Assembly: GCA_016867415.1 (NCBI GenBank)
Contig: VGJO01000001.1
Coordinates: 80,052 to 144,051 of the forward strand
Length of the DNA: 64,000 nt
Reading direction: 5' to 3'
DNA from: Candidatus Harrisonbacteria bacterium
GTDB taxonomy: Bacteria > Patescibacteriota > Minisyncoccia > UBA6257 > UBA11618
In this document: piece after piece, positions 7,157 through 61,702 of the stretch
Layout: each line of letters opens with the position of its first letter
How positions within the stretch are numbered: position 1 is the first letter of the stretch
Notes under the pieces: model-generated
What the model saw: the letters and a program-made list of their open reading frames with translations, nothing else
The model's database searches: none
What the model was told of the DNA's origin: nothing
Made by a program: the position numbers and the translations under genes

Positions 7157-7447
7157 CTACTCAAGTAATCTTGCAACACGCTCTAATTCTTGCTCAACTA
7201 AAGAACTATCATAATCCCCACTATGTACTGACGCCCCCTCATAGCTTGGTCGCTTCTGATCCAGGTGAAGAGAAAGAAAAAGTTTCCCTTCGGCCACCCG
7301 CGTATACATATGAAACTTCGGATACTCCATTCTGGAGAGTCGTCGCACGAAGCTCGTCTCCGCCCCTTTCTGCCTGTCATAGGCATACCCCGCCCGCCGC
7401 ATAAACACCTGCAAATTTTCTCGAAAACCCTCCACCATCTTTTTCAT
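7157..7447 (-). CDS. hypothetical protein
   Basis: 96-aa ORF with non-repetitive composition, in tandem with gpmI. No recognisable motif. Confidence 0.35.
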   Translation of the reverse strand: MKKMVEGFRENLQVFMRRAGYAYDRQKGAETSFVRRLSRMEYPKFHMYTRVAEGKLFLSLHLDQKRPSYEGASVHSGDYDSSLVEQELERVARLLE

Positions 7448-7621
7448 CTTTCACATTCTATGATCTTTTCCTTTTCTCTGCTAGGTTAATTCTTTAAAAA
7501 TTTCATATCGCGTATTAAATGCAGATTTTTTGAATAAACCTTCACTACCTCTAAACTTCTTATGATAAAAAATACAATCAATCAGTTTTACAACTTTATG
7601 AGTGAATAGAAGTCAGGGATA

Positions 7622-9217
7622 TTAGTTAATTCGAGAGACTAGACTTTCTCCCGTCATATTATCTGGTTTCTTTATCCCTAGTATCTGAAGTATGGTCGGT
7701 GCCACATCTGATAAAAGCCCAATCACGGATAGTCTCTCCTCTGCTCTCCATCTCCTCCTTTCTTCTAAGCTTCGCTCCCACTCCGACCCGACTAAATAAA
7801 AATGCACCTCCGATGCATTATGCTTCGTTTCCGGAATCCCCGTGATTGGATCCATCATTCGCTCCACATTCCCATGATCCGAAGTAATGATCGTGGTCAC
7901 TCCTCGTGTTAGCGCCGCGCTTGCGATTCTTGCGATCTCTGTGTCGAGCACTTCGAGCGCCTTGACCGCCGCGGCAAAGTCGCCCGTGTGTGCAATCATG
8001 TCCGCGTTCGCAAAGTTTACCAAGATAAAATCCATCGCTCCCTCCTCAATCGTCGCAATCACTCGTTCGCTAATCTCTCGCGCCCGCATCTCCGGATGCT
8101 CATTATGATGGGCAGTAGAGGAAGAGGGGATGAGGACTCGATATTCATTTGGTTCCGGCGCCTCAGTGAGTCCGTTAAAAAAATACGTCACGTGAGCATA
8201 TTTCTCCGTCTCAGCAATTCGCAGTTGATTGAGTCCTGCCCTCGATATCACTTTTCCGAGCGGCTCCTCTACTCGTTCGGGTGGAAAAATGATGAGCGGT
8301 GTGATCCCTGCCGCGTATTCAGTCATAGTAGCAAGGATCACTTCCACCTTTTCTTCCTTTACAAAATCTGGATAAAAACTCTGTCCGGCAAGATCTGTAC
8401 TTGAGAAACAACTCGCTATCTGCCGGATACTATCCTCTCGATAATTAAAAAAAAGTACGGCATCGTGAGCTCGCACCGCCCCCTCCATAAAGAACATCGC
8501 TGGTAGTAATTGATCATCATTGAGCCCTTGGGCATACTGTGCCTCGATATACGTCCTGATCCTCTCCCGCTCCTCTCCCTCCTCTGCCACCAGTTTTTTA
8601 TTCCCAATGATCGCCTCGTACATTTCCTTTGTCCGATCAAAGTGCCGATCTCGATCGAGACCAAACACCCGTCCCCCGATACTTCCCATCCTTGCTCCGT
8701 GCTTTTGCATCGTTGGTAAAAGCCGTTCATATAATTCTAAAAAAGATCTTGGAGCGCTATCTTTCCCATCCGCAAATAAATGTAAATATATCTCTATCCC
8801 TCCCTCTTTCCCCGCGACCTCAATGAGCTGTATGAGGTGCTCAAGCGACGCATGCACATGCCCTTGTGACAAGAGACCGATAAGGTGCAGTCGCCCACTC
8901 TGCCGAGCTTTGGTCAGCGTCTCTCGGAGTACCGGATTTTTCGCAAAATCGCCCGTCTCAATCGCAATCGAAATTCGGGGGTAGTGCTGATAGAGAATTT
9001 TACCAGCGCCGAGTGTTAGGTGCCCTACCTCGCTATTGCCTACTTCGCCCCAAGGTAGACCCACGGCAATCCCCGAGGCCTGGAGCGCCCCGCCCCTATA
9101 ATGGCTTCGGATGATCTCCATATTTGGGAGTTTAGCTGTCATGATGGGATTCGTCTGATCTCGTTCTCCCTCCCCCCAGCCATCAGTAATAATAAGACAA
9201 ACTTTTTTCTTTGACAT
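7622..9217 (-). CDS. gpmI: 2,3-bisphosphoglycerate-independent phosphoglycerate mutase
   Basis: N-terminus MSKKKVCLIITDGWG and HLIGLLSQGHVH match iPGM. Length 531 aa. Confidence 0.88.
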   Translation of the reverse strand: MSKKKVCLIITDGWGEGERDQTNPIMTAKLPNMEIIRSHYRGGALQASGIAVGLPWGEVGNSEVGHLTLGAGKILYQHYPRISIAIETGDFAKNPVLRETLTKARQSGRLHLIGLLSQGHVHASLEHLIQLIEVAGKEGGIEIYLHLFADGKDSAPRSFLELYERLLPTMQKHGARMGSIGGRVFGLDRDRHFDRTKEMYEAIIGNKKLVAEEGEERERIRTYIEAQYAQGLNDDQLLPAMFFMEGAVRAHDAVLFFNYREDSIRQIASCFSSTDLAGQSFYPDFVKEEKVEVILATMTEYAAGITPLIIFPPERVEEPLGKVISRAGLNQLRIAETEKYAHVTYFFNGLTEAPEPNEYRVLIPSSSTAHHNEHPEMRAREISERVIATIEEGAMDFILVNFANADMIAHTGDFAAAVKALEVLDTEIARIASAALTRGVTTIITSDHGNVERMMDPITGIPETKHNASEVHFYLVGSEWERSLEERRRWRAEERLSVIGLLSDVAPTILQILGIKKPDNMTGESLVSRIN

Positions 9218-9412: not shown

Positions 9413-9540
9413 CTCAATTCTCTAAGGGCTATAGATCCTAGGTATTCTCCGGGAAATAAAAAAATAGAAAGTTATCGAAAAAGACCAGCTCTTAATTGAT
9501 AGAAAAAATCGTTAATATCAAATGTCTATTTTTAACTACT

Positions 9541-11061
9541 ATGCCACCCCTTATTGCTGCTCTCTTGGGCGCACTCTTTTCCGCCGCTCTTATTCTCGCC
9601 TTTCGCCGCCGCGAAGCGCTTCGATCTAAAGATCAGGAAGAGCTCGAATGGAAAAAGCTCCGTGATATCGCTGATCTTGAAGCCCAAAAAGTCATCCTTG
9701 AAGCCAAGGAAAAATCTTCCACTCTTTTTGAAAAGATAAAAAAAGAAGAATCCGATCGGCAGGAAAAACTCTCCGCCTTCGAATCTCGTCTCTTAGAAAA
9801 AGACAAAAGTCTTGATCGGCGCGATGAAGATCTCCGGGTCAAAGAATCCGTTCTAATTGATCGTGATAAAAAAAATGAGACTGAAAAAGAAGCGCTGAAA
9901 GAAAAAGAAAATGAAGTTATTGCCCGTTTAGAGTCAGTTGCTCAGCTTAGTAAAGTTGAGGCCAAGGACCTCCTCTTTGATCGTGTCCGCAAAGAAAACG
10001 CCGCAAGCCTGGCCGAGACTCTCTCTCGCCTTGAGCGAGAGCGTCGGGAAGAGATTGAGAAAAAAGCCGGCGAGATCATTACGACCGCCCTCGAGCGCTA
10101 TTCCCGCTCGCACATCACAGAGCTCTCCACCTGCGTCTTCACCCTAAAAAGCGAGGAGTTCAAAGGCAAGATTATTGGCCGTGAAGGGAGAAATGTGAAG
10201 ACTCTCGAGCGTCTGACCGGCGTTGATTTCATCTTTGATGAGAGTCCCGAGAGCATTACCATCTCTTCCTTCGATCCTATTCGCCGTGAGATCGCTCGCC
10301 TCGCTCTTGATAAGCTCATTCGCGATGGCCGCATCCAGCCCGCGAAGATTGAGGAAAAGGTTGAGGAAGCACGAGGTGAGCTCGAAAAGAGAATTATGGA
10401 GTTTGGTGAAGAAGCTGTCTACGAGCTCGGTATCGTTGATTTCCCCAAAGAGATTGTGAAGCTCTTAGGCCAGCTTCACTTCCGCACAAGCTACGGCCAA
10501 AATGTTTTGCATCACTCGGTAGAGATGGCGCACTTGGCCGGCATGATCGCCAAAGAAATTGGCGCCGATGTGATGATCGCCAAAAAAGGCGCGCTCGTCC
10601 ACGACATTGGTAAAGCCATCGATCATGAAGTAGAGGGGACACATATTGAGCTTGGTCGCAAAATTCTCGAAAAAGCTGGCGTTGATCGCCGGGTTATTCA
10701 GGCTATGGAAGCTCATCACAATGATTATCCACACGCCACCCCCGAAGCCTTTATTGTCACCGCCGTTGACGCTCTCTCTGGCGGCCGCCCTGGCGCGCGC
10801 CGCGACTCCTCAGAAATGTATCTGAAGCGCCTAGGAGATCTCGAGCGCATTGCCCTCTCCTTCCCAGGGGTCAAGACCGCATATGCTATCTCTGGAGGCC
10901 GGGAAGTTCGTATCTTTGTCACCCCTGAGCGTATTGATGACTTTGGTGCCCTTGAGCTTGCCAAAAACGTCGCCGACCGCATCCGCTCCGAAATGACCTT
11001 CCCCGGAGAAATCAAGGTGAATGTTATAAGAGAGCTTAGAGCAACTGAAATCGCCCGTTAG
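9541..11061 (+). CDS. rny: ribonuclease Y
   Basis: N-terminal TM helix (MPPLIAALLGALF), coiled-coil, KH domain (GKIIGREGRNVKTLE) and HD domain (LHHSVEMAHLAGMIA...HDIGKA). ATG 9541 preferred over the upstream TTG 9496. Confidence 0.88.
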   Translation: MPPLIAALLGALFSAALILAFRRREALRSKDQEELEWKKLRDIADLEAQKVILEAKEKSSTLFEKIKKEESDRQEKLSAFESRLLEKDKSLDRRDEDLRVKESVLIDRDKKNETEKEALKEKENEVIARLESVAQLSKVEAKDLLFDRVRKENAASLAETLSRLERERREEIEKKAGEIITTALERYSRSHITELSTCVFTLKSEEFKGKIIGREGRNVKTLERLTGVDFIFDESPESITISSFDPIRREIARLALDKLIRDGRIQPAKIEEKVEEARGELEKRIMEFGEEAVYELGIVDFPKEIVKLLGQLHFRTSYGQNVLHHSVEMAHLAGMIAKEIGADVMIAKKGALVHDIGKAIDHEVEGTHIELGRKILEKAGVDRRVIQAMEAHHNDYPHATPEAFIVTAVDALSGGRPGARRDSSEMYLKRLGDLERIALSFPGVKTAYAISGGREVRIFVTPERIDDFGALELAKNVADRIRSEMTFPGEIKVNVIRELRATEIAR

Positions 11062-12117: not shown

Positions 12118-12654
12118 ATGGAAGATCTTGACAAAGAGCTAGTCCGTCGGGCAAGACTTGGAGATAAAGACGCTTTTGCAGCTATTTACGAGCATAATCT
12201 GCCTCGTATTTACCGTTTTATCTATTTCAAGACTGCTAATCGCGCAACCGCCGAAGAAATCACCCAGGAGGTATTTTTGGCCGCTTTGCGAGCCATTCCG
12301 CGGTATCATGATGAGGGTTTTCTGGTTTCTAGCTGGCTTTATGAGATCGCTCGCAATAAAGTCATTGATTTCTACCGGTCTAAAAAGAGCGATATCTCAA
12401 TCGACGAAGAGCTTGAGGAGCGTCCCGAGCTTACCTCCACTGATTTTGTAAAAACCATGGAGACAAAGATTGAAGCCGACAAACTAAAAAACCTTTTAAA
12501 AAAACTTCCCGAAGATTATCAAAACATCATCCTTCTTCGTTTTGTAGAAGATCTCTCAAATGAAGAAGTAGCTCATTCATTAGGTAAGAGTCTGGGTGCC
12601 GTCCGCGTCCTTCAGCACCGCGCCTTAAAAGCTCTCCGTAAATTAGTCGAGTAA
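12118..12654 (+). CDS. RNA polymerase sigma factor, ECF (sigma-70 family regions 2 and 4)
   Basis: Region 2 (VFLAALRAIPRY...WLYEIARNKVIDFYR) and region 4 HTH (EEVAHSLGKSLGAVRVLQHRALKALR). Confidence 0.85.
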   Translation: MEDLDKELVRRARLGDKDAFAAIYEHNLPRIYRFIYFKTANRATAEEITQEVFLAALRAIPRYHDEGFLVSSWLYEIARNKVIDFYRSKKSDISIDEELEERPELTSTDFVKTMETKIEADKLKNLLKKLPEDYQNIILLRFVEDLSNEEVAHSLGKSLGAVRVLQHRALKALRKLVE

Positions 12655-13991: not shown

Positions 13992-14345
13992 ATGAAAAAA
14001 ACACCTTTATTAAATCAAGCTGGAGGTAACACTATCTTCTGGGTAGTCTTTGGCGTCCTCGTCATTGGTCTCGTCCTCATCTCATCCTCAAAACCATTAA
14101 TTAATCCTCAAGCAGAGGGATTTCCTGTTTCCACAGATCTAGAAAATTTTGTTTCACTTAATCCAGAAGATTGCCCAGAGGAACCTCTATTAGAAGCCAC
14201 TCCTGATCCTGCTGGTTCTGCTGGTTCTGCTGGTCCTGCTGCTGGTTCTGCTGCTGGTTCTGCTGGTTCTGCTGCTGGTTCTGCTGGTCCTGCTGCTGGT
14301 CCTGCTGCTGGTCCTGCTGAGATGGAGCTCCTCCGCCTCCCCTAA
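13992..14345 (+). CDS. small membrane-anchored protein with (A)GSAG(P) tandem repeat tail
   Basis: ATG with TM segment. C-terminal region encoded by gctggttct/gctggtcct tandem repeats. Confidence 0.5.
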   Translation: MKKTPLLNQAGGNTIFWVVFGVLVIGLVLISSSKPLINPQAEGFPVSTDLENFVSLNPEDCPEEPLLEATPDPAGSAGSAGPAAGSAAGSAGSAAGSAGPAAGPAAGPAEMELLRLP

Positions 14346-14993: not shown

Positions 14994-15159
14994 GATGCAA
15001 ATCTTGCTCTCTTATCTTTGCACTAAAGATAAGAACTAGAATAACCCGAAATATGATAAAAATCAAAGAAAAAACATCTAAAATACTTTGCATTGTAAAA
15101 TGTATAATGCAAAGTATTTATCCCCACCTATATTTTTTTATTTTATACTAAAGGAGAAA

Positions 15160-15597
15160 ATGCGCGCTACTTTCTCTTTTTTCTTTATCCTTCTCTTCCC
15201 TATTTTTTTATTTAGCGTAAGAGCGCTGGGAAGCGCTTCATCTCCATCTCTCAAGACAGAAAAATCCCCCTCTGCTCCTATCCCCCTCTTCTCATCTATA
15301 AGTGACTATCCACAAGGCTTTGCAAGCGTTATCGAAAAGGAGGGGAGTATGATCTACACGATTTTTGCCCCTCTTGCCCCTCTTGATAATTCTTTCGTCT
15401 ACCGCGCTTGGCTCAAGCAGGCTTACGGAGGAGAAGTTTTCCCTTTAGGAGATCTTGCCTCCTCAATTGATGGTTTTTTCCTTGATGTCTCCCTCCGTCG
15501 CGACACCCAAACCTTCAAAAAAATAATCATCTCCAAAGACCCTGTCGCCCACCCCGGTGAATCCTCCAAAAATATCTTCCTTCAAGGCACTCTCTGA
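15160..15597 (+). CDS. hypothetical secreted protein
   Basis: AAGGAG 6 nt before ATG 15160. Signal-peptide-like N-terminus MRATFSFFFILLFPIFLFSVRALG. Extended -10 (TGTATAAT) at about 15102-15109. Confidence 0.55.
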   Translation: MRATFSFFFILLFPIFLFSVRALGSASSPSLKTEKSPSAPIPLFSSISDYPQGFASVIEKEGSMIYTIFAPLAPLDNSFVYRAWLKQAYGGEVFPLGDLASSIDGFFLDVSLRRDTQTFKKIIISKDPVAHPGESSKNIFLQGTL

Positions 15598-18686: not shown

Positions 18687-18879
18687 AATAGCTCTATATG
18701 ATAAAAAATTTTACCATATATAAAAAGATCTGTAATAGAAGCCTAGGTTCCTTGTGTTTTAAAAAAGGAGAAAACAGGGTATATTATCCAAAGATCCATA
18801 AAAGCGCTATATAGCACTTCGCACCTTGATTCCCGCCTATCTTCATGTGATAGGCTATCACTTTTTCTGGAGGACTATC

Positions 18880-19275
18880 ATGTTTGGTCGCCGTCGTTTT
18901 CGAGAGCGGTTTCAGTTTCCCTGTAGTCTTTTGAGGCGCATGAGAATGGCTAGTATAGCCATCATCCTCTGCATGCTTTCCTTGTTTCTTGTGGCTGATA
19001 CAGCTCAGGCTCAGTCCGGAATTTTCTTGTCTTGGGGATTGGGAAGTAGATGGGACAGTTACCATTTTCGCCCGCCCTATCAGGGTGACTATTGGCACTA
19101 CCATCCCCGTTGCTATTCCTACCCTATGCCATATCCATACTACTATGGAGGGCATTATCCTTCGTACCCGATCTTCAATGGTCCTTGGGGTACGCCCATC
19201 TACACCTTCCCTGCATATGGTTGGGGTTATGGTGGTGGGTATAGCTTTGGTGGTGGATACTACCGTTCCTGGTAA
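18880..19275 (+). CDS. secreted Tyr/Gly/Pro-rich low-complexity protein
   Basis: GGAGG 7 nt before ATG 18880. Arg-rich n-region then hydrophobic core and AQA cleavage-like site. Mature part YPYYYGGHYPSYP...GWGYGGGYSFGGGYY. Confidence 0.55.
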   Translation: MFGRRRFRERFQFPCSLLRRMRMASIAIILCMLSLFLVADTAQAQSGIFLSWGLGSRWDSYHFRPPYQGDYWHYHPRCYSYPMPYPYYYGGHYPSYPIFNGPWGTPIYTFPAYGWGYGGGYSFGGGYYRSW

Positions 19276-19321
19276 TGAAACTTTACTACCCGGCCCTTCT
19301 TCTCCATCTCTCCTTCTTTCA

Positions 19322-19356
19322 CATTCCCGCATCTTGAATGCGGGTTTCTCTTTATT
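19322..19356 (+). terminator. intrinsic terminator
   Basis: Stem cccgcat/atgcggg followed by a T-rich tract. Confidence 0.55.
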
Positions 19357-19444
19357 TATAAGGTACTGGATCCTGGATCAAAGGCCGGAAGATAAGATGT
19401 TAAATTAAGCAGAAACATGAGCAAAAGAATTCAAAGTATGAGTA

Positions 19445-20011
19445 CTAAAAAAGACTAGCCTTTACTTCAAAGCTTGGTAAGACTAACGGCACCCTCACAA
19501 TTTCATTCGTATATTTCTTCGGTATTGCCACATAGCCATTTTTTTTAATGAAATCATAAAGCATCTTCGTCACCTTCACGTCCTGCAGACAATATTCCTG
19601 AAGTTCTTTAAGCTTTCCCTCTTCCCAGTAACGAATAGCATCCAAGCCATGCCCCGTCTTCCCCACTCCCAGATTAGTCTGCGCCAAGATATCAAGCCCG
19701 ATCCGCGATCCATATGCCGCCTCGATCACTTCAAGAAGATCTAAGTTATTTAGCGCCATGATATTGAAGTTGAAATACTTCCGCATCACCGGCAGATCAA
19801 ACCGCTTGGTGGCAAAGCCTATCACCATTCCCGCGTTTTGAAAGATTGGTCCCAGTTGCGGAAAATCCTCCTCGAAGAAAGACAAATATTTATCTTGTTG
19901 GTACGAATACACACCCACAAAGCTTGTCTCTAATCGATCAATATTATGCGCTCCGCCTACATCCGCAAAGGTATTTTTCGTCTCAATATCAAACACAATG
20001 ACATCTTTCAT
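19445..20011 (-). CDS. DnaQ-like (DEDD) 3'-5' exonuclease superfamily protein
   Basis: VIVFDIET (Exo I motif) and YCLQDV (Exo III-like YxxxD) motifs. 188 aa. Confidence 0.5.
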   Translation of the reverse strand: MKDVIVFDIETKNTFADVGGAHNIDRLETSFVGVYSYQQDKYLSFFEEDFPQLGPIFQNAGMVIGFATKRFDLPVMRKYFNFNIMALNNLDLLEVIEAAYGSRIGLDILAQTNLGVGKTGHGLDAIRYWEEGKLKELQEYCLQDVKVTKMLYDFIKKNGYVAIPKKYTNEIVRVPLVLPSFEVKASLF

Positions 20012-20112
20012 ATAAGAAAATATCCCTCATAATACCTTACTTTTTTACAGAAAAGAAAAAGTGCAAATTTCCCTTATTTTATAGGCTTATTTGACAAGTT
20101 TTAATAGGCATA

Positions 20113-20141
20113 TTGACTTTAATTTATAAGTATGCTATAAT
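20113..20141 (+). promoter_or_regulatory. sigma70-type promoter (TTGACT-17-TATAAT)
   Basis: TTGACT at 20113-20118, 17-nt spacer, TATAAT at 20136-20141. About 90-nt leader with an aagcc/ggctt hairpin before the 20235 gene. Confidence 0.5.
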
Positions 20142-20234
20142 ATAAAATGAAAAGCCTGAATAAGGCTTGTGACCGAAACTTGAAAATCTTCTTATCCCCA
20201 GCCGATTCTCTCTCGGCGCATCAGAAAGGTAATC

Positions 20235-20957
20235 ATGGCCACATGGCAGAAATGGGTTTTTGGAATCTTGGCGGGAATCATTCTCCTGCCAGCGGTCCCG
20301 GAGATCATCAAAGGTCTTCGTGAGTCAATAATTCAAGGAGTGCGGGGTTCGACAGCGACGGTTAACACCGTCAACCAAGTCAATCCCCAGGGTCAAGTCA
20401 GTGTTTCTCAGCAACTGCCCAACGGAAGTTTCATCGACTTCCAAGGTCAAGTCTGGGGCCGAGTCAAAGATGACTCGGCTCCCGCTACCGGCAGTTCAGT
20501 GATCCATGTGGACGAGCACAACCATCACTACCATGTAGTGGACGGTGGTGCAGTCCAAGGTGGCGGTCAGCAAGTGGTGGAGCAATGTGTTACCCCTGCC
20601 GCTGTCTACTGCGAGCAGCCTGCCACGACACAGTGGTGCGCCAATCCAGCCACTGCCCGCGCCTCTGCGAGTTACAACAATAGCTTCAATCGCTATATAG
20701 ATCGCAGTCGCAACGCTCCGTTTATTGATCTTTCGGGCCTTATCAGCCTGAACGTCGCAAACGGTGGCGGTGGTTTCCTTGGTGGCGGTGGAGGTTACGG
20801 CTTTACGAGTGGTGGATACTGGGACAACTACTACGCGAGTGGTTCCAGTATTTGCGGTGGGGGATTATTTGGAGGCGGTGGTTACTACTACCCTCGCCCT
20901 CAACCTCGCCCTCAACCTCCGGTCTGCGCTCCACCCCAGCGCTACCGCAGCTACTAA
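20235..20957 (+). CDS. membrane-anchored/secreted protein with His-rich segment and Gly/Tyr/Pro-rich tail
   Basis: N-terminal TM, HVDEHNHHYH, GGGGFLGGGGGYG...YYYPRPQPRPQPP. GC-rich codon usage relative to neighbours. Confidence 0.55.
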   Translation: MATWQKWVFGILAGIILLPAVPEIIKGLRESIIQGVRGSTATVNTVNQVNPQGQVSVSQQLPNGSFIDFQGQVWGRVKDDSAPATGSSVIHVDEHNHHYHVVDGGAVQGGGQQVVEQCVTPAAVYCEQPATTQWCANPATARASASYNNSFNRYIDRSRNAPFIDLSGLISLNVANGGGGFLGGGGGYGFTSGGYWDNYYASGSSICGGGLFGGGGYYYPRPQPRPQPPVCAPPQRYRSY

Positions 20958-20986
20958 CCGGGCGCCGATTCACTTCGGCTTCCCTG

Positions 20987-21021
20987 ACCTCAGACAGCAC
21001 TCCGTCTGAGGTCTTTTTTTT
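20987..21021 (+). terminator. intrinsic terminator
   Basis: Stem acctcagac/gtctgaggt, 8-nt loop, followed by T8. Confidence 0.7.
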
Positions 21022-21133
21022 GTCTGCCGTTCTGCAATTACGAAGGAGGATTTTACCCCCGGCTTCACCTTTTCATATCTTTATGCGAAGGCAGGAGCCT
21101 TAGGTAAAAGAGACTTTTTATTTTTTAAAAAAT

Positions 21134-21162
21134 TTGACTTCAATTATTATATATGATAATAT
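21134..21162 (+). promoter_or_regulatory. sigma70-type promoter (TTGACT-17-TAATAT)
   Basis: TTGACT 21134-21139, 17-nt spacer, TAATAT 21157-21162. GAGG 6 nt before ATG 21242. Confidence 0.5.
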
Positions 21163-21241
21163 GTTGTAAATTTGGAGGATGTCCTCTAAACGCAAATTGA
21201 AAGATTAATCAAACAAAGCAAGCAAGAAAGTGAGGTCTCTC

Positions 21242-21931
21242 ATGCGATGCCTTCGATTTTTTTGTTTCGTGGCCCTAGCGCTTTGTGCGCTGGCTACCTC
21301 AGCAGAAGCTTCGCCCGGCTCTTCCGGCAGCGCGCCCAATCCACCTATGGAGCCCGGCGCCTCCGCCGCTTGCCCCGGCGGTGCCAAATGCCACGCCTGG
21401 CAGGAACGCTGCTTCAAGAAAAAGCGCGTTCCCGTCACCGTTACCACTGAAGTGGAAGTTGATGTCGAAGAGGTCATCATCCACAATCACAATGAGAAAG
21501 TCGTTGAAGTCATTAAGGAGGTGCCGGTCGAAAAGCGGATCTGCGTCCCGGTGGATCGGCCTGTGCCGGTCTATCGAGATCGAGTGCAGGTAGTGGAGAA
21601 GAGGGTCTGCGTTCCTGTCCCGGTGGACCGAATCGTCTATCGTGATCGGATTGTGTACCGGGATCGCCCTGTCTACGTTCCGTCCTGCATCGAGCACTGC
21701 CCACCGCCTCCAAATGGTGGTTGTTGTGTGCTCGGTTTCGGTAGTAGTGCACCTTCCATGCGAACGCGGCAACTCTCAATCATCGGGCCTCAAGCATCGG
21801 TGCAGGTCGGCGGGGGAGTCTTCGCGCGAGTGAAGGCGGCCCTGCCGATAATCAACTACCGAAGCGAGACTCATCGTGGCCCTCATCGCCCCTTGAGCTC
21901 TAGTGTGGGTGATCCGCTCTACCAGCCGTAA
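21242..21931 (+). CDS. secreted Cys-containing protein with VPVDRxVYRDR tandem peptide repeats
   Basis: Signal peptide MRCLRFFCFVALALCALATSAEA. Repeats VPVDRPVPVYRDR / VPVDRIVYRDRIVYRDRPVYVP. GC-rich. Confidence 0.55.
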   Translation: MRCLRFFCFVALALCALATSAEASPGSSGSAPNPPMEPGASAACPGGAKCHAWQERCFKKKRVPVTVTTEVEVDVEEVIIHNHNEKVVEVIKEVPVEKRICVPVDRPVPVYRDRVQVVEKRVCVPVPVDRIVYRDRIVYRDRPVYVPSCIEHCPPPPNGGCCVLGFGSSAPSMRTRQLSIIGPQASVQVGGGVFARVKAALPIINYRSETHRGPHRPLSSSVGDPLYQP

Positions 21932-21978
21932 AGACGGCAGAAGTCACCGCGTATGGCCCCCTCGCTGTGACGCCGTCT

Positions 21979-22013
21979 AGCTCCCGAGATTCTGAATCTC
22001 GGGAGCTTTTTTT
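21979..22013 (+). terminator. intrinsic terminator
   Basis: 12-bp stem agctcccgagat/atctcgggagct, 5-nt loop, T7. Confidence 0.75.
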
Positions 22014-22117
22014 ATCTCGCCGCAGCTTTTCATAAAAGTGAATCCAAACGTATTTCTGTACTTAATTACCAAAAAATGTTTTAATCCAAAAAAATAAAAA
22101 TTTTTATCGGTGACTTA

Positions 22118-22253
22118 CGCCACGAAAGCGCAGGATTTTTGAGAAGAGTTTGGATTTTCTTTGTGAGCAGCGAACGGAGCATACTAGAACTTGAGTATGT
22201 GAGTACGAGACGCAGCAAAAAAATCAAGATCTTCTAAAAAATACAAGCTTATT
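22118..22253 (+). repeat. copy of dispersed structured intergenic repeat, ending 4 nt before the cysteine desulfurase start
   Basis: cgccacgaaagcgcaggatttttgag...gaacggagcatactagaacttgagtatgtgagtacgag...caaaaaaatcaag...acaagctt. Confidence 0.6.
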
Positions 22254-22256
22254 AAT

Positions 22257-32426: not shown

Positions 32427-35400
32427 ATGAACAGTCATTTCAGAAAAATCACGTCCGTGGCGGTTTCCGCTACGACCGTGGCCTGGTTGTCTGGTGCTTC
32501 GATGCTTATGCCCGCGGCTTTTGCCCAGAGCGTGACCGATGTTGCTAGTCTTCAGGCGCTTATTGCTCAGCTTACTGCGCAGCTTGCGGCTTTGCAGGGC
32601 AGTGGTTCTGCTTCGACCGGTGTTTCCGTTGCGGGTATTCCCGCCGGATTTCAGTTTACCAGCAACCTCACTGTTGGTAGCCGAGGCACCGATGTGAAGT
32701 ATCTTCAGATGCTTTTGAACGCGGATTCCGCTACTCAAGTTGCCGCTTCCGGCGCTGGCTCTCGTGGTTTAGAGACCGATTCCTTCGGTCCTCGCACCAA
32801 GGCGGCTGTAGCAAAGTTCCAAAATAAATATGCGAGCGAAGTTTTGACTCCTGCTGGTCTTACTACTGGTACTGGTTACTGGGGTGCGGCCACTCGTGCC
32901 AAGGCTAACTCGATCGTAATGGCAGGCGGCAGTACTACTCCTACTCCGACTCCTACGCCGGGCATTACTGGCGCGGTAGTTGTTTCCCTTGCTAGCGACA
33001 CTCCGGTGGCGTCAAACGTCCCGAAGGGCGCTTCGCAAATTCCATTTACCAAGCTTGTCTTCACTGGCAACGGCAGAATCGATTCTTTGACCTTTAAGCG
33101 GGTCGGCGTCGGTCAGACCGGCGACTTTGTCTCAAGTGGTATCAACCTCTATGAGGGTGCCACTCGTTTGACCACTGGCAAGACTATCAATTCCACCAGC
33201 CACGAGGTGAACTTCCCGAACTTGAATCTTCAAGTAAGCGGTACTCGCACTCTCTTGCTCGCTGCGGACATTAGTTCCAGCGCGACCTCTGGTGATTTGA
33301 ACGGTTTCACTCTTATCAGTGCGATCATCGATGGTAAGACTCAGGCTACCGATATTCGTGGCGCTCAGATTGCTATCTCGGGAGCTTCCGTCGGTGCTGC
33401 GACCAGCACCAAGCAGGGCTCTCTCTCCAATCCGAACGTTGGTCAGGTTGCTGCCAAGGTTTCCGAGTTCAAGATTACCGCTGGGACTGCGGAAGATATC
33501 ATGGTAAAGAAAATCGTCTTGACCAATGGTGGCTCGATGAGCTCTGCTAATCTCACTAATGTGACCATTAAGCAAAGTGGTACCACTCTTGGTACTGCTG
33601 CTGCGGTCTCTGGTCGAGATCTCTTTGTGGTTGACTTCACCACTCCTCTTCAGATCTTAAAGGGTCAGTCGAAGAATTTCGAAGTCTTTGGTAACATCAG
33701 TCCTTTGGCGAAGAGAGCGGAAACTATCAAGCTCTATCTTGATACGACCTCTGATATCTTTGCAACTGGTGCTACCTACGGTTATGGCGTCTCGATGGAC
33801 ATCAGCGAATTTGATTCCGATTCGTCTAATCACCACGTCTTAACTCTCTCTGGCGCTGAAGTAACCATCACCTTCAATGGTCCGGTTGCTCGCAATATTC
33901 CGGTCCGTGGTCAGGATGTCACTTTGTTTGACTTCTCGATCGCTTCCGCGAATAACATCGAAATCCGCAACTCGTCCTTCACTGTGGCGATTGCCAACTG
34001 GGCGTCTGGTGACGAAGTCACCGATTTCAAGGTTATTGATGCGTCTACTGGCGCGGCGGTAACGAGTGCTACCACTATTGGTGACTCGGCTGCTACCGAA
34101 TCAGTATCCTTCACTGACACTATTAATATTGCTGCCGGCCAGACCCGCAAGTTCTTGGTAACTGGTGACATCAGCTCCACTATGGATGCTAGCGACACTA
34201 TTACTGTGACCTTGGGTGCCTTTGGTTCCAGCTCTATTAAGAACTTGGATAACAACCAGTTTGTCAGCACTTCGGATATCGTTCCTGCTACTGCGATCGC
34301 GGGTAACACTCAGACCGTAAAGGCAGTAACGCTCGATGTGACTCTCTCTGGTACTCCCGCTTCCCACAATGTGGTAAAGGGTTCCTCCAACGAACAGCTT
34401 GTTGGCTTCAATTTGAAGGCGACCAGCGGTAAGGTTCGTGTGAGCTCCTTGACGGTTTCCGCTTCGGCGGCTCCCGGTAGCGAAACCCAGGTTCGCAATG
34501 ACCTTCGCAGTGCTTCTCTCTTGATTGACGGCGTAATGGTCGGATCTAAGAAGAGTTTCACTGATGAGGGAGATGTTTCCTCTGCTGCCTTTGACAATTT
34601 GAATTACGAGATTGAAGAAGGTAAGACCGTGAAAGCGGTTGTGCAGGTGGATCAGATCTCGACCGATGCGACTTCGGGCAATGTGTATCGTGCGTACATC
34701 AATGATCTCTCCGCTGATATCTCGGCGACTGATGTTGATGGCAATGCGCTTTCCTTGTCTGGTAGTGTCAACGGTGGCGACACGACTGCTGGTACTGTGA
34801 CTGTGACTGTCGCTACTCCGACCGTGCAGATTTCTAAGATCGATGATCAGGAGACCGAAGAGGGCCTTGTCGTCGGTGGTCAGGAACAGCGCTTGGCGAA
34901 GTTTGAAGTCTTTGCTCAGTACTCTGATGTCCGAATTAATAAGTGGCGTGTTGGTGTAAACACCTCGGCTGCCGCGGGCACCACCACTGCTCTTAATGAG
35001 GAGGTCAAAGAAATTCGTCTCTATGACGGCGCCACTCTTATTGCCTCTGGAGTTCCTTCTGGTAGCGGTGCGGATGCGGGTGCGGTCAAGTTTGAGAACA
35101 CTGCTGGTCTCTTCTCGGTTGCTGCAAACAGCACCAAGAAGATTGAGGTTCGCGCCATGTTGGGTGAAGTGACTGGTGTGACTGGTGGCGCTGACACTGG
35201 TTCGAGTATTGTCGCCTATTCTTCAAGTTCTGACTTTGAAGCGGTCGCTGGCAACACTCAACTCACGACCTTCTCTTCGACCACTCCTCCTATCGGCAAT
35301 ATCAAGAGACTCTATCGCAGCATTCCGACTGTGGATGTCTCAAGTCCCTCAAGCGCTGTCCTTACGGCTGGCGAAGTTGAGGCCTTGAAGTTCACGATCT

Positions 35401-35864
35401 CTGCTGATCCGAAGGGTGATGTTGATGTAGCAAGAGTCGAGTTCGAAGTGTCCGTGAGCAACGCTACTATTACTGCTGACAGTATTGTGGTTCGATATGC
35501 TGGGAGCAATATCACGCTTTCAACGTCCACTATCATTGCGGCAAATCCTTCTACCACTACCGCTTCGGGTACCATTTCGTTCACTACTCCGGAGAGAATC
35601 AGCGCCGGCCAGTCTAAGACCTACTCTGTGTTCTTGACTGTTGGGGCGGTTGGTTCCGGATCTGCGTCGCTTGTCACCAAGCTTCTCAGAGACGAAACAG
35701 CTTTTGCCACTCCGGCCTCCCGCGCGAGCTTGGACGTTACTGCGAATTCCTTCGTATGGAGCGATCGCGGTATCTCGCCTCACAGCGTGAGCACTGCCGA
35801 CTTTCACAATGGCTTCAGAGTGAAGACTCTTCCCTCTGGCGCCAAGGCTTTATCTAAGAGCTAA
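32427..35864 (+). CDS. large secreted cell-surface protein: signal peptide, coiled-coil, PG_binding_1-like domain, then tandem Thr/Ser/Gly/Val-rich beta-sandwich-like repeats
   Basis: Signal peptide ...MLMPAAFA-Q. Segment GSRGTDVKYLQMLL...DSFGPRTKAAVAKFQNKY...GYWGAATRAKA resembles a peptidoglycan-binding domain. About 900 aa of repeated approximately 100-aa modules. Markedly GC-rich. Confidence 0.8.
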   Translation: MNSHFRKITSVAVSATTVAWLSGASMLMPAAFAQSVTDVASLQALIAQLTAQLAALQGSGSASTGVSVAGIPAGFQFTSNLTVGSRGTDVKYLQMLLNADSATQVAASGAGSRGLETDSFGPRTKAAVAKFQNKYASEVLTPAGLTTGTGYWGAATRAKANSIVMAGGSTTPTPTPTPGITGAVVVSLASDTPVASNVPKGASQIPFTKLVFTGNGRIDSLTFKRVGVGQTGDFVSSGINLYEGATRLTTGKTINSTSHEVNFPNLNLQVSGTRTLLLAADISSSATSGDLNGFTLISAIIDGKTQATDIRGAQIAISGASVGAATSTKQGSLSNPNVGQVAAKVSEFKITAGTAEDIMVKKIVLTNGGSMSSANLTNVTIKQSGTTLGTAAAVSGRDLFVVDFTTPLQILKGQSKNFEVFGNISPLAKRAETIKLYLDTTSDIFATGATYGYGVSMDISEFDSDSSNHHVLTLSGAEVTITFNGPVARNIPVRGQDVTLFDFSIASANNIEIRNSSFTVAIANWASGDEVTDFKVIDASTGAAVTSATTIGDSAATESVSFTDTINIAAGQTRKFLVTGDISSTMDASDTITVTLGAFGSSSIKNLDNNQFVSTSDIVPATAIAGNTQTVKAVTLDVTLSGTPASHNVVKGSSNEQLVGFNLKATSGKVRVSSLTVSASAAPGSETQVRNDLRSASLLIDGVMVGSKKSFTDEGDVSSAAFDNLNYEIEEGKTVKAVVQVDQISTDATSGNVYRAYINDLSADISATDVDGNALSLSGSVNGGDTTAGTVTVTVATPTVQISKIDDQETEEGLVVGGQEQRLAKFEVFAQYSDVRINKWRVGVNTSAAAGTTTALNEEVKEIRLYDGATLIASGVPSGSGADAGAVKFENTAGLFSVAANSTKKIEVRAMLGEVTGVTGGADTGSSIVAYSSSSDFEAVAGNTQLTTFSSTTPPIGNIKRLYRSIPTVDVSSPSSAVLTAGEVEALKFTISADPKGDVDVARVEFEVSVSNATITADSIVVRYAGSNITLSTSTIIAANPSTTTASGTISFTTPERISAGQSKTYSVFLTVGAVGSGSASLVTKLLRDETAFATPASRASLDVTANSFVWSDRGISPHSVSTADFHNGFRVKTLPSGAKALSKS

Positions 35865-36021: not shown

Positions 36022-36197
36022 CACGCGAAGTAATTTTGGATGGAGTTTGTGATTTCTTTCCGAGGAGCCGCCGCAACGTATAAATAAAAGGTATGTCGAA
36101 GGTACTTAGTACTCTAATACCGGAGATCTCGAGTACTCTCGAGGTGAAGAAGCTAGCACAGAAAAAACTGCGAAAATTCGCCAAAAAACAAGCTTAT
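36022..36197 (+). repeat. long variant (with internal insertion) of dispersed structured repeat, ending 3 nt before GT4 start
   Basis: ccacgcgaagtaattttggatggagtttgtgatttc... + insertion ggtacttagtactctaatacc / ctcgagtactctcgag + ...gaaaaaactgcgaaaattcgccaaaaaacaagctt. Confidence 0.6.
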
Positions 36198-36200
36198 ACC

Positions 36201-37385
36201 ATGAATAAAAAGATGAGTAAAAAAGTTTTATTAATAATTACGCAACCCACCTGGGGCGGCGCCCAACGCCATGTCTTTGATCTCGCTCTTGGCCTAAAAG
36301 AGGAAGGTTTCAAGGTGGTGGTAGGGACAGGGAAACCCAAGTCTTCTGCTAAAGAAGACTCTCTTCTCATCGAAAAGTTAAGAGAAAAAGAAATCACCAC
36401 TCAAATCTTTTCTCATCTCACCCGTCCTATTAGACCCCTTTCAGACATTCGCGCTATTTTCGAAATCTTTTCTTTCCTCCAAAAAAATAAAATAAATATT
36501 CTCCATCTCCATAGTTCGAAGGCCGGGGTGGTGGGAGCGGTGGCCGGCTTTCTTGCTCGCACCCCTCGCCGTCTTTTTACCGCTCACGGCTTAGTGCTGA
36601 ATGAGCCTCTTCCCCGGTATCTTCATGGTCTCTATTACATCCTTGAATGGATTAGCTTCCGCCTCTCGCATCACATCATTACCGTCTCTGATTTCGACCG
36701 TCATATTGCGCTAAAAAGTCGTCTCACTTCTCCTCTTAAAATCTCCACAATCTGGAACGGCATTGATCAAAAAGTATTTACCTCTTCACTCTTACCTAAA
36801 GAGACTGCTCGAAGAAAAATTCTCTCTCTCTTTCCCCACTCCATAGATGAAAAAAACTTCATTATCGGAACCATCGCTCATTTCTACAAGAATAAGGGCC
36901 TCTCTTTTTTAGTTTCCGCGGCCGAGATCGTGGTAAAAAGTTTCCCGCAAGCCCACTTTGTCATTATAGGGAGTGAAGGTTCGGAGCGCGCTTCTATTGA
37001 GCAAAAAATAAAAGAGTGCTCACTTGAAAAAAACATTCACTTGCTAGGTTTCATAGAAAATCCCGAATCATTATTAAATAGTTTTGACCTCTATGTTTCC
37101 TCATCTCTCAAAGAAGGCCTTCCATACTCCTTAATCTCAGCTCTTTCTGCGGAAGTACCAATAGTGGCTACTCAGGTTGGTGGCTGTTCTGAAATTATTA
37201 TTAATGAAGAAAATGGACTCCTTGTCCCTCCTGCCGACGCACCTGTTCTTGCTTCTGCTATTAGCCGCTTCCTAATCTCTCCTCACCTAAAAGAAAAAAC
37301 AAGAGAAAATAATAAAGTCCGCTCCTCGCTCTTCTCCCTTTTTGAAATGATTGATAAAACTATCGCAATCTACGATAATCGCTAG
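36201..37385 (+). CDS. glycosyltransferase family 4 (GT-B)
   Basis: EGLPYSLISALSAEVPIVATQVGGCSEII..ENGLLV (E-x7-E motif region). The ORF-track N-extension from 36093 is translated repeat sequence. Confidence 0.8.
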   Translation: MNKKMSKKVLLIITQPTWGGAQRHVFDLALGLKEEGFKVVVGTGKPKSSAKEDSLLIEKLREKEITTQIFSHLTRPIRPLSDIRAIFEIFSFLQKNKINILHLHSSKAGVVGAVAGFLARTPRRLFTAHGLVLNEPLPRYLHGLYYILEWISFRLSHHIITVSDFDRHIALKSRLTSPLKISTIWNGIDQKVFTSSLLPKETARRKILSLFPHSIDEKNFIIGTIAHFYKNKGLSFLVSAAEIVVKSFPQAHFVIIGSEGSERASIEQKIKECSLEKNIHLLGFIENPESLLNSFDLYVSSSLKEGLPYSLISALSAEVPIVATQVGGCSEIIINEENGLLVPPADAPVLASAISRFLISPHLKEKTRENNKVRSSLFSLFEMIDKTIAIYDNR

Positions 37386-51764: not shown

Positions 51765-51829
51765 GATTCGGGATTGAGAAAATCTTTGCCAAATACCCAA
51801 TTATCATTAAAATATTCAAAATCTCTGAA

Positions 51830-52651
51830 ATGTTTAATAAAGACTTATTTCTTTTGCAAAAAGTTACAAACACAGACGTCATTCATACGCCTTTTCCTTA
51901 TTTTGTAATAAAAAATGCATTACCCGAAAATATTGTTTCTGAACTCGTAAAAAAATTTCCTTCAACTGGAAAAATAACCAAAGGACAGAGGTACGGGAGT
52001 AATGAACGTTTTGATTATACGATAACTGATGCTGCTTCTGATTCAAGCCTCGATTCTCTATGGATAGATTTCTTAGATACGAATAGTTCAGATGTTTTTT
52101 ATGAAAAAATATTTGAGTTATTCGATAAAGATATTGCTCAGCTGTATCCCGAATTAAGTTTCCGAAAAAATAATAATTATTTAAAAAAAGGAATTCGTTA
52201 TCAAGATCCGCTTTGGGAAGACTCTATTAATTTTGATTGCCATATCTCAATAAATACCCCAGTAACAGAAAAACCTACCTCGGTAAGAAAAGTGCATGTT
52301 GATGATCCTAAAAAACTTTTCGGAGGTCTTTGGTATTTGAGAGATGATGACGATCAAAGCACGGGAGGTGATCTGGAGCTCTACGAATACATAAGAACTC
52401 CTAAAATGTTTGGGCAGCAAGTCTATGAAAACAGAGTGAAAAAAATAAAGACCGTGCCATACGAGAAAAATCTTCTTATTATATTTTTGAATTCTTTTAA
52501 TTCTCTGCACGGAGTCACTATAAGGGGAAAAACAGAAAAAACAAGAAAATTTGTAAACGTGGTGGCCGAATTAAAAAATTCTCTTTTTGATATAAATAGT
52601 TTTCAAGAAAATTTTATAGAAAGAAAAATAAGGCAAATGATAAGCAGTTAA
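51830..52651 (+). CDS. hypothetical protein, possibly 2OG/Fe(II) oxygenase-like
   Basis: HVDD (HxD) and a downstream LHGV..R. Otherwise no clear motif. Confidence 0.35.
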   Translation: MFNKDLFLLQKVTNTDVIHTPFPYFVIKNALPENIVSELVKKFPSTGKITKGQRYGSNERFDYTITDAASDSSLDSLWIDFLDTNSSDVFYEKIFELFDKDIAQLYPELSFRKNNNYLKKGIRYQDPLWEDSINFDCHISINTPVTEKPTSVRKVHVDDPKKLFGGLWYLRDDDDQSTGGDLELYEYIRTPKMFGQQVYENRVKKIKTVPYEKNLLIIFLNSFNSLHGVTIRGKTEKTRKFVNVVAELKNSLFDINSFQENFIERKIRQMISS

Positions 52652-52672
52652 TAAAATAAAGATTAGCTTGAT

Positions 52673-53458
52673 ATGTTTCAAAAAATAACGAAAACTATTT
52701 ATCGAATTCTAATCCCATCTTTTATAGAAAGGGGAGCTGATCCGGAAAAAGAGAGCTTAAGAAAATTTATAGAAACGGTAGCGGCAAAAGAAATAAGAGC
52801 GAAAGAGCGGATGTTAGATGCCGGAGCTGGGTTTAAAAGATATGAGGGTTTTTTTAAGCACGCAATATATGAATCGACTGATTTTGAAGATATTTTCAAT
52901 AAAGATTTTAAAAATAAACACACATTCGTTTGTAGTCTAGATAATATCCCAGTGGCTGATAATACATACGATGCAATTATAAATAATCAGGTTCTGGAGC
53001 ACGTAAAGTATCCTAAAAAAGTTTTAGAAGAGCTATTTCGAATACTAAAGCCTGGAGGGAAGATATTTGTTACGGTCCCTCAAATCTCTCATGTCCACGG
53101 AGCGCCTTACAATTTTTTCTTTTTTACTAATTTCGGCTTAGAACTTCTTCTAAAAGAGACAGGTTTCAGAATCATTTCTATTAAACCTCGAGGAGGTATC
53201 TTTTTTGTGATTGCTAAATGGATGAATGTCTTTTCCGATTATTTGTTCTATCAGCACGTCTTTAATGGATGGAAGAGAAATATCTCTTTCAAACCTGAAA
53301 AAACAGGCAGGGTAAAATTTTATCTTTTATTCCCTTTTTATTTTATTTCTAGAATAGTGATTGGCGAGTGGGGCGCTTATTGCGTCTCAAAGTTAGATTT
53401 TCTAGATAAGCAGAAAAACTTCACTCTTGGTTATTCTGTTTATTGTATAAAGCCTTAA
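52673..53458 (+). CDS. class I SAM-dependent methyltransferase
   Basis: MLDAGAGFKRY (motif I), LKPGGKIFVTVP (post-II). Confidence 0.65.
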   Translation: MFQKITKTIYRILIPSFIERGADPEKESLRKFIETVAAKEIRAKERMLDAGAGFKRYEGFFKHAIYESTDFEDIFNKDFKNKHTFVCSLDNIPVADNTYDAIINNQVLEHVKYPKKVLEELFRILKPGGKIFVTVPQISHVHGAPYNFFFFTNFGLELLLKETGFRIISIKPRGGIFFVIAKWMNVFSDYLFYQHVFNGWKRNISFKPEKTGRVKFYLLFPFYFISRIVIGEWGAYCVSKLDFLDKQKNFTLGYSVYCIKP

Positions 53459-53465
53459 TCTCTCG

Positions 53466-55590: not shown

Positions 55591-55610
55591 AATACCTATG
55601 TTTTTTCACT

Positions 55611-59824: not shown

Positions 59825-59839
59825 AATAAAGAAGATAGC

Positions 59840-60469: not shown

Positions 60470-60500
60470 TCCTCATTTCGAAGAAAAAAGGTCCTTAACT

Positions 60501-61690: not shown

Positions 61691-61702
61691 TTTCAGCTTT
61701 TC

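Follow-up and report, generated by a model that had tools for sequence, protein, structure and literature searches.

The Bacillus spore-coat proteins CotC and CotU are small, very tyrosine-rich proteins of a surface layer and are thought to be cross-linked. Their assembly takes place within the mother cell, a signal peptide is missing, and the tyrosines stand in a Lys/Asp-rich context. For the alveolin/articulin superfamily, tandem Val/Pro-rich repeats with a period of 12 residues have been described; articulins, plateins and alveolins form skeletal sheets, and the plateins carry signal peptides (PMC4303705). The glycine-rich tick cement protein GRP is secreted, and was shown to phase-separate and to gel via contacts of arginine with aromatic residues, with AlphaFold confidence being reported for the N-terminal helix only (PMC11794139). 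Here, three small plus-strand genes, designated g1, g2 and g3, are compared to these systems. They are located in a 64-kb stretch of DNA, called the window in the following, which gives all coordinates not assigned to another contig. The window originates from Candidatus Harrisonbacteria, an uncultured, ultra-small freshwater lineage of the Parcubacteria in the Candidate Phyla Radiation (CPR).

A first-pass annotation of the window had described an island of three independently expressed genes for secreted low-complexity proteins, which were regarded as matrix, sheath or coat components or as a horizontally acquired cassette. The three open reading frames are present at 18880-19275 (g1, 131 amino acids), 20235-20957 (g2, 240 amino acids) and 21242-21931 (g3, 229 amino acids). 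They represent a typical and neatly organised case of the lineage-specific exported hypothetical proteins that are common in CPR genomes; an identical copy of g2, annotated as hypothetical, is listed at NCBI from a metagenome-assembled genome of Candidatus Harrisonbacteria. The complete statement, namely that g1-g3 are real and vertically inherited genes with a function in the envelope or an extracellular matrix, is given a little less than an even chance.

Three predicted exported proteins and their putative transcription units

Each of the three ATG codons is preceded at a distance of 5-6 nt by a Shine-Dalgarno (SD) sequence, GGAGG at 18869-18873 for g1, AAGG at 20226-20229 for g2 and GAGG at 21232-21235 for g3. 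Signal peptides and the membrane anchor were judged by eye from the sequence. In g1 and g3, Sec-type signal peptides were identified, with a positively charged n-region, a hydrophobic h-region that spans 10-15 residues and a small residue at both -3 and -1 (...SLFLVADTAQA/QS in g1 and ...ALCALATSAEA/SP in g3, with the slash marking the cleavage site). The hydrophobic N-terminal segment of g2 (WVFGILAGIILLPAV, nt 20253-20297) comprises an h-region but no A-x-A site, and is therefore assumed to be an uncleaved anchor. A lipobox of the form [LVI][ASTVI][GAS]C was found in none of the three proteins, since the 'LALC' of g3 has Leu at -1. Thus, a signal peptide or a membrane anchor is present in each protein, as had been annotated, and export of the three proteins is considered highly probable.

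The signal peptide of g1 (aa 21-44, nt 18940-19011) follows an unusual arginine-rich extension of 20 residues (aa 1-20). This extension starts with MFGRRRFRERF and the h-region begins about 20 residues later; in twin-arginine (Tat) substrates, the motif S/T-R-R-x-F-L-K immediately precedes the h-region. The exported part of g1 (87 amino acids) consists of 21 % Tyr, 18 % Gly, 13 % Pro and 7 % Trp, compared to a background of 6 % Gly, 3 % Tyr, 4 % Pro and 5.5 % Val, and ends with YGWGYGGGYSFGGGYYRSW. In g2, the anchor is followed by a Q/N/V-rich region, the cluster HVDEHNHHYH (nt 20505-20534), a region with three Cys, a Gly/Tyr tail (nt 20763-20891) and the sequence PRPQPRPQPP (nt 20892-20921); the 12-nt unit coding for PRPQ (20892-20919) is the only tandem repeat detected at the DNA level. 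Gly is the most frequent residue of g2 (15 %), followed by Ser, Val, Gln and Ala, and five Cys are present. The first-pass annotation had listed His/Gly repeats among the dominating features of the three proteins. While the Tyr/Gly/Pro-rich character of g1 and the Val/Pro repeat of g3 with its nine Cys were confirmed, g2 is not dominated by His, containing only five such residues, four of them in HNHHYH (aa 95-100) and the fifth at aa 91. A YRS-aromatic ending was observed both in g1 (...YYRSW, 19264-19272) and in g2 (...RYRSY, 20946-20954), as well as in the g2 orthologue of a sister species (...HYRSY, positions 19-27 of contig L101); in Tyr-rich tails this could be chance.

The exported part of g3 is rich in Val (16 %), Pro (13 %) and Arg (9 %). 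Its signal peptide (nt 21242-21310) is followed by the N-terminal motif APNPPM.P..SA.CP...KC..WQER (nt 21332-21409), a Val/Pro/charged repeat (nt 21428-21682) and a C-terminal region of about 70 amino acids (GCC..GFGS...MRTRQL..GP.AS.Q.GGGVFA...GDPLYQP, nt 21716-21928). In the repeat (aa 63-147, about 85 residues), the core motifs VPVDR, VEVPVEK and VYRDR are arranged in alternating V-x-V-x order. Autocorrelation revealed significant offsets of 2, 6 and 22, with a z of 2.0 for offset 12; the alternation of period 2 (z 3.6) is as amphipathic strands would give. Structure predictions with AlphaFold2 resulted in a mean predicted local distance difference test (pLDDT) score of 45 for g2, modelled from the single sequence, in which only a helix of residues 2-37 is confident (pLDDT 79-87 for residues 1-30). 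For g3, modelled from an alignment of three sequences, the mean was 37, with about 50-54 for the signal-peptide helix. Accordingly to be expected are a secreted Tyr/Gly/Pro/Trp-rich protein for g1, a membrane-anchored one for g2 and a secreted one for g3, all of them probably disordered to a large extent.

Evidence for the reality of g3 was also obtained from a sister species. When 1.84 billion representatives were searched exhaustively with HMMER, a single true orthologue of g3 was identified, P0009, with a full-length identity of 58 % (E 2e-49), while the other four matches share the repeat alone. Both the N-terminal and the C-terminal motif given above are conserved in the alignment with P0009, and the repeat between them varies in length. 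P0009 is encoded on L101, a contig of 1.8 kb, on which the end of g2, the terminator stem, the promoter, the 5' hairpin, the g3 orthologue, a terminator, a leader and a cysteine desulfurase gene follow each other in this order. The g2 orthologue ends with ...APPGHYRSY, compared to ...APPQRYRSY in the window; apart from this C-terminal fragment and strain or self copies, the protein search identified no homologue of g2. A search for additional P0009 cluster members on longer contigs gave none. The g3 family is small and new, and comprises two known members. Between g3 and P0009, the proportion of nonsynonymous differences (pN) is 0.265 overall and 0.20 in the C-terminal region, at a saturated synonymous proportion (pS) of 0.76, which shows that g3 is under purifying selection. 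For the cysteine desulfurase, which is 69 % identical between the contigs, pN is 0.185. By this sequence comparison, g3 appears to evolve only slightly faster than the housekeeping desulfurase (58 versus 69 % identity).

The contig L020, from a variant strain, shares 99.3 % identity with the window across 7.2 kb. It contains four indels in coding sequence, all multiples of 3 and all in g2 and g3: three in-frame insertions of 9, 6 and 3 nt in g2 (+18 nt net), and one in-frame deletion of 6 nt in g3, by which HNHN is shortened to HN. No indel is present in 5.1 kb of other coding sequence. The indels fall into low-complexity or His-containing stretches, and g2 additionally has two nonsynonymous and no synonymous single-nucleotide polymorphisms (SNPs). 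The strain difference H91R in g2 adjoins the His cluster. In FtsK, seven synonymous and three nonsynonymous SNPs were counted. That g2 and g3 are real genes is regarded as practically certain. The genes g1-g3 change fast by in-frame gain and loss of repeats in the low-complexity parts, with the ends of g3 being constrained.

For the transcription signals, which were identified as consensus matches, near-consensus promoters had been claimed for all three genes. This was confirmed for g2 and g3. The g2 promoter (20113-20141, TTGACT-17-TATAAT) matches the consensus in 11 of 12 positions and has an extended -10 TG; three sites with 11/12 exist on both strands of the window, and only this one has the extended -10. 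The g3 promoter (21134-21162, TTGACT-17-TAATAT) matches in 9 of 12 positions, here also with an extended -10 TG, and L101 shows conservation of both its -35 and its -10 region. A promoter duplication between g2 and g3 was considered and rejected, since the two have only the consensus elements in common. For g1, only a weak sigma-70-like site (18758-18787, TTTAAA-16/18-TATATT/TATTAT, 9/12) was identified, located in the intergenic region between g1 and the divergently oriented ftsK.

An intrinsic terminator, composed of a GC-rich hairpin and a T-tract, follows each of the genes, as had been annotated. The g1 terminator (19326-19344) lies 50 nt past the stop codon and has a 7-bp stem with five GC pairs, followed by TTTCTCTTT. 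The g2 terminator (20986-21013) has a 10-bp stem and T8, with the stem sequence conserved in L101, and the g3 terminator (21979-22007) has a 13-bp stem and T7, with an equivalent hairpin in L101. When transcription starts are placed 6-8 nt past the -10 element, the predicted mRNAs of g2 and g3 begin almost directly with a stem-loop, which for g2 (20152-20168, -8.2 kcal/mol, z -5.3) is located about 4 nt and for g3 (21171-21190, -8.7 kcal/mol, z -2.4) about 2 nt from the 5' end. In L101, a hairpin of different sequence (-13.8 kcal/mol) occupies the same place before the g3 orthologue. Hairpins at the 5' terminus are known to stabilise bacterial transcripts, and the g2 and g3 mRNAs would, from these signals, be expected to be abundant. 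Each gene thus has its own promoter-like site, weak for g1, and a downstream terminator, as monocistronic units do, and the claim of independent expression is supported by three separate predicted units in the window and a corresponding one in a relative described below. The predicted 5' hairpins of g2 and g3, retained in L101 for g3, speak in addition for strong expression. Between 18 and 23 kb, 13 promoter-like and 11 terminator-like sites were counted, compared to 5.9 +/- 2.7 and 5.7 +/- 2.4 in shuffled sequences.

The same locus in related genomes

Between g1 and g2, the minus strand codes for a DnaQ/DEDD-type 3'-5' exonuclease of 188 amino acids (19445-20011), for which both the opposite orientation and the assignment, based on Pfam matches to RNase_H_2, DNA_pol_B_exo2 and DNA_pol_A_exo1, agree with the first-pass annotation. 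Its GenBank label, 'helicase', looks like an annotation error. Judged from its distribution, it is a conserved backbone gene and stands outside the g1-g3 set. In metagenomes, 80 contigs were found to encode a homologue (45-66 % identity), in many cases beside ftsK, cysteine desulfurase and clpB. In species-representative genomes, a synteny search via the exonuclease gave no match, and one via FtsK gave three useful relatives.

Approximately 85 related loci were retrieved via FtsK and exonuclease anchors. In dozens of related contigs, the backbone consists of ClpB, cysteine desulfurase, a slot, the exonuclease, a second slot and FtsK, with slot sizes from 71 bp to about 5 kb. Nothing alignable to g1-g3, which fill these variable slots in the window, is encoded in these loci. 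However, at the position of g2 and g3 and in the same orientation, genes for proteins of 150-190 amino acids were identified in the closest loci (L021 471-929, L022 4862-5326, L023 4797-5315 and L027 4709-5290). These proteins start with a signal peptide and have a tail rich in Gly and Tyr (and Arg; GGYRGGYGGYRGGYG). Three of the four, with the exception of L022, contain close to the N-terminus a His cluster with interspersed aromatic residues (EYHHFHHSG, EHHHIYHGG and EVHHYYHLV), comparable to HNHHYH of g2. In L022, the gene is preceded by a promoter that matches the consensus completely (12/12) and is followed by a terminator of its own. These analogues share with g2 and g3 the slot and orientation beside the cysteine desulfurase gene and a monocistronic organisation with consensus promoter and terminator, but they are not alignable with g1-g3 above chance and are accompanied by an RNaseH_like gene. 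Homology of g1-g3 with the slot proteins, or with each other, was significant neither by hhalign nor by shuffle-calibrated Smith-Waterman alignment, and is regarded as unproven rather than disproved.

In nearly all relatives (L021-L056), the exonuclease gene is immediately preceded by this RNaseH_like/DUF458 gene (PF04308, E 4e-44; for example, L022 5489-5995). A counterpart is found nowhere in the 64 kb of the window, which shows that the slot was remodelled in this lineage. At the position of g1, convergent to the exonuclease gene, small His-rich lipoproteins are encoded on the minus strand of L029 (6600-6872), L048 (2376-2663), L050 (1720-1977) and L051 (6570-6824), with the lipobox VSGC in L029 and VFGC in L050. 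The L029 protein contains (DGK)n collagen-like repeats with a sub-threshold Collagen match. In L010, no convincing open reading frame is present at 7270-8478, between the genes for the exonuclease and phosphomannomutase; this region includes a masked stretch of N, and an RNA gene may be located there.

Downstream of g3, the cysteine desulfurase gene (start at 22257) is preceded by a leader (22054-22256), of which a 40-nt block (22054-22094) is almost identical in L101. This block is followed by an extended, imperfect hairpin (about 22126-22250, -37.3 kcal/mol, z -2.55), which L101 retains with an insertion in the loop. No Rfam match at the gathering score was obtained for the leader, which may have a regulatory role or represent a small RNA. 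All Logan-assembled contigs of the locus (L001, L003-L007 and L020) end at 22157, in the left arm of this hairpin, while the JGI contig L002 runs through; the shared end may reflect a break of the assemblies at the inverted repeat, or else a breakpoint between strains. Further upstream in the window, a gene for an ECF-type sigma factor (Sigma70_r2/r4, 12118-12654) is followed 3 kb on by a weakly RskA_C-like (anti-sigma) open reading frame (15088-15597). A link of these to g1-g3 was not seen, and the promoters of g1-g3 are of the housekeeping type.

Proposed role, alternatives and origin

The function as a matrix, sheath or coat component is suggested by composition, and a structural, self-associating surface role of g1-g3 is proposed tentatively, as somewhat more doubtful than not. 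According to this proposal, abundant g2 and g3 mRNAs would result from strong promoters, stabilising 5'-terminal hairpins and tight terminators, and the proteins would remain at or near the cell surface after export by the Sec pathway. There, they would self-associate, g1 and g2 via aromatic/Gly 'sticker' tails and g3 via its amphipathic V-x-V-x strands, with a possible reinforcement by His-metal coordination and disulfides. The outcome would be a material of the envelope or of an extracellular matrix, which might possibly serve in attachment. How the mostly uncultured CPR bacteria hold host cells and build their envelope is largely obscure, and g1-g3 are reasonable candidates for surface or attachment components.

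Several points weigh against this reading. The signal-peptide calls were made by eye only, the transcription starts were deduced from the -10 positions, and low pLDDT at an alignment depth near zero is weak evidence for disorder. For g1, a single informative SNP is available. Comparison of g1-g3 with the slot proteins of the relatives reached an hhalign probability of 31 % at most, and z values of 2.3 at most against shuffles which preserve local composition. As far as the sequences go, the slot genes of the relatives are thus positional and compositional analogues rather than shown homologues, and the similarity may be convergence, or coincidence among the numerous low-complexity exported proteins encoded by these genomes. 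Finally, amino-acid composition does not account for the excess of GC at third codon positions (GC3) in g2 and g3, described below, and the window holds no ribosomal-protein genes as a reference for an expression-linked codon bias.

A bolder version assigns all of these slots a common purpose. In this Parcubacteria clade, a conserved 'nursery' of very highly expressed exported proteins with fast turnover would exist in the slots next to the genes for the exonuclease and the desulfurase. These proteins would be built on one plan of an export signal, a His cluster and an aromatic/Gly or Val/Pro self-association module, and g1-g3, as the representatives in the window, would jointly form a metal-hardened or condensate-derived extracellular glue or coat for attachment to a host. 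This is considered improbable.

Of the alternatives to a structural surface role, an extracytoplasmic binding or buffering of metals (Zn, Ni, Cu or Fe) by the His clusters and Cys motifs, with the low-complexity parts as spacers, survives best, and is nevertheless unlikely. His clusters recur in the slot proteins of the window (HNHHYH in g2, HNHN in g3 and WHYH in g1) and of most relatives, and the strain differences H91R and HNHN to HN hit His positions. Against this, each protein has only 4-6 His, and HNHN is not conserved in P0009, which has a single H. The best PDB matches of g2 are periplasmic solute-binding proteins of the metal type, aligned over the His stretch, but with an E of 0.12 they are not significant; in the PDB searches with g1-g3, either nothing or ZnuA-like matches at chance level were obtained, and no known metal-binding domain was found in Pfam or NCBIfam. 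A cysteine desulfurase gene adjoins in many genomes; however, in the window it is separated from g3 by a strong terminator and has its own leader.

A second possibility is that g1-g3 are secreted effectors directed at other cells, either antimicrobial or host-manipulating peptides or epibiotic adhesins under diversifying selection. Gly/Tyr-rich and Pro/Arg-rich stretches resemble some eukaryotic antimicrobial peptides. The very narrow taxonomic distribution and the rapid indel evolution would fit, as would the presence of only nonsynonymous strain SNPs in g2, but the SNP counts are far too small for positive selection to be claimed, and g3 is under purifying selection near the housekeeping rate. 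Although CPR bacteria are generally thought to be attached to hosts (PMC9698310), no immunity gene, toxin domain or secretion-system gene was identified nearby, and g2 appears to be membrane-anchored instead of released. An effector role is rated as rather improbable.

A horizontally acquired cassette, with foreign GC as its mark, had been one of the suggestions of the first-pass annotation. The GC content is indeed raised in g2 (0.556) and g3 (0.588) compared to the window (0.425), but less so in g1 (0.495), and the exonuclease gene between g1 and g2 has an ordinary value (0.429), so that the region is not one contiguous GC island. When synonymous codons were resampled from the usage of the window, a GC of 0.505 for g1, 0.530 for g2 and 0.541 for g3 was expected from the amino acids alone. 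All of the GC excess of g1 and about 70-80 % of that of g2 and g3 is therefore compositional, caused by Gly, Pro, Arg and Ala codons, and the 'foreign GC' signal is mostly an effect of amino-acid composition. The GC3 values of g2 (0.548) and g3 (0.613) are the highest in the window and exceed this expectation (z 2.5 and 4.2). The same was found for two native genes, one for a surface protein of 1145 amino acids (z 4.7) and the other at 9496-11061 (z 2.5), so that the bias is not exclusive to g2 and g3.

The absence of g1-g3 from all relatives with an exonuclease identity below 66 % and the missing RNaseH_like gene would be compatible with acquisition. In the sister species, however, the C-terminus of g2 and the complete g3 are present at the same site, with a divergence like that of the neighbouring housekeeping gene and with a g3 GC3 of 0.51 compared to 0.47 for the desulfurase. 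No donor was identified, since no homologue outside the lineage appeared among 1.8-5.8 billion proteins, and the window contains no integrase or mobility genes. A tRNA gene is not present within 3.8 kb, and neither direct repeats flanking the genes nor att sites were detected. Horizontal acquisition is thus very unlikely; a recent one is largely refuted, and an older one by the common ancestor may have occurred. That g1-g3 are lineage-specific, vertically inherited genes and not the result of recent transfer is held to be likely with good confidence.

A far stronger compositional anomaly than in the g1-g3 region is found at 51800-64000, where a block has a GC of 0.30-0.37 and a GC3 of 0.21-0.35, compared to about 0.45 elsewhere; a glycosyltransferase gene is located upstream of it (36093-37385). 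The protein of 1145 amino acids (32427-35864) has a signal peptide, is rich in Thr, Ser, Ala and Gly and has no Pfam match. Its gene is flanked by a promoter-like TTGACT site (32136) and a terminator (35910), and the product is probably a major protein of the cell surface. A small membrane-anchored protein rich in (A/G/S/P)n (13992-14345) has a GC3 of only 0.24, and the low-complexity exported genes of the window therefore do not have one common codon bias.

The g1 locus is annotated differently in the databases. On the minus strand, an antisense 'shadow' open reading frame of 182 amino acids (18784-19332) is listed in GenBank as FJY91_00505 and is also called by JGI. Its ATG is located inside the terminator hairpin of g1 and lacks an SD sequence. 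The sole strain SNP in g1, in comparison to L020, is synonymous on the plus strand and nonsynonymous on the minus strand. A codon likelihood trained on the codon usage of the window, which selects the sense frame in 32 of 32 control genes and also for g1, g2 and g3, gives the best value for the plus frame of g1, about 6 nats above the antisense frame. Because of the SD sequence, the signal peptide, the terminator, the synonymous SNP and the codon likelihood, and because of the position of the antisense ATG in a hairpin without SD, g1 is most likely a gene of the plus strand. FJY91_00505 is probably not a gene, and GenBank would then annotate this locus on the wrong strand. That one or more of the three open reading frames are non-genes, arising as by-products of local composition, is hardly credible and concerns essentially g1, for which the minus-strand calls, the absence of a homologue beyond itself in the word-indexed protein search, the single informative polymorphism and the weak promoter-like site are outweighed by GGAGG at an ideal distance, a textbook signal peptide, the terminator and the best codon likelihood, while g2 and g3 have in-frame indels only, conserved promoter and terminator elements and, for g3, an orthologue under purifying selection.

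Comparison to described protein families

The view of the first-pass annotation that none of the three proteins belongs to a described family was supported. No match above threshold was obtained in Pfam, NCBIfam or PHROGs, matches in the PDB were absent or at chance level, and the structure models of g2 and g3 are of too low confidence for a fold search. Word-indexed homologue searches with g1-g3 gave self matches and one match, P0001, which shares the repeat only and is encoded on a Tad-pilus contig of an unrelated organism. Among individual candidates, DUF2076 (PF09849) was rejected for g2, as it reached 17.8 bits at a cut-off of 38 over low-complexity sequence. GRP (PF07172) gave no match for g1-g3 and 15 bits at a cut-off of 30 for the L022 analogue. 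The alveolin/articulin domain IMCp (PF12314) gave no match for g3 at E <= 1, and a 12-residue period is not present; P0012, an unrelated repeat protein with the VPVDRVVYRDR repeat of g3, reached 17.5 bits in comparison to a cut-off of 21.1. That one architecture recurs in one slot with sequences which cannot be aligned illustrates how genes of this kind are missed when annotation relies on homology. The C-terminal region of g3, its last approximately 70 residues, is not of low complexity and might lend itself to expression and study.

Compared to CotC and CotU, no sequence match appeared in the searches, none of which tested these proteins specifically. The core of g3 resembles the articulins, plateins and alveolins of protist membrane skeletons in its Val, Pro and charged residues and its V-x-V-x order, and the plateins also in having signal peptides. 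In contrast, g3 has periods of 2, 6 and 22 in a length-variable repeat of about 85 residues, originates from a bacterium, has a predicted extracytoplasmic location and carries conserved non-repeat ends. The likeness is most likely convergent.

With the GRPs of tick cement and of plants, g1, g2 and the slot proteins of the relatives share the arrangement of a signal peptide before a Gly-rich, presumably disordered chain, in which aromatic residues (and Arg) are regularly spaced. As for the tick GRP, AlphaFold confidence for g2 is confined to the N-terminal helix. A sequence relationship does not exist, the GRPs are eukaryotic, and g1 is rich in Tyr, Pro and Trp rather than in Gly alone. Should the slots indeed house coat proteins built on one plan, such a coat would correspond, in bacteria, to tick cement and to the His/Gly/Tyr biomaterials of marine invertebrates. 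At most, and by analogy, g1-g3 may work like the secreted low-complexity structural and adhesive proteins which are known mainly from eukaryotes.

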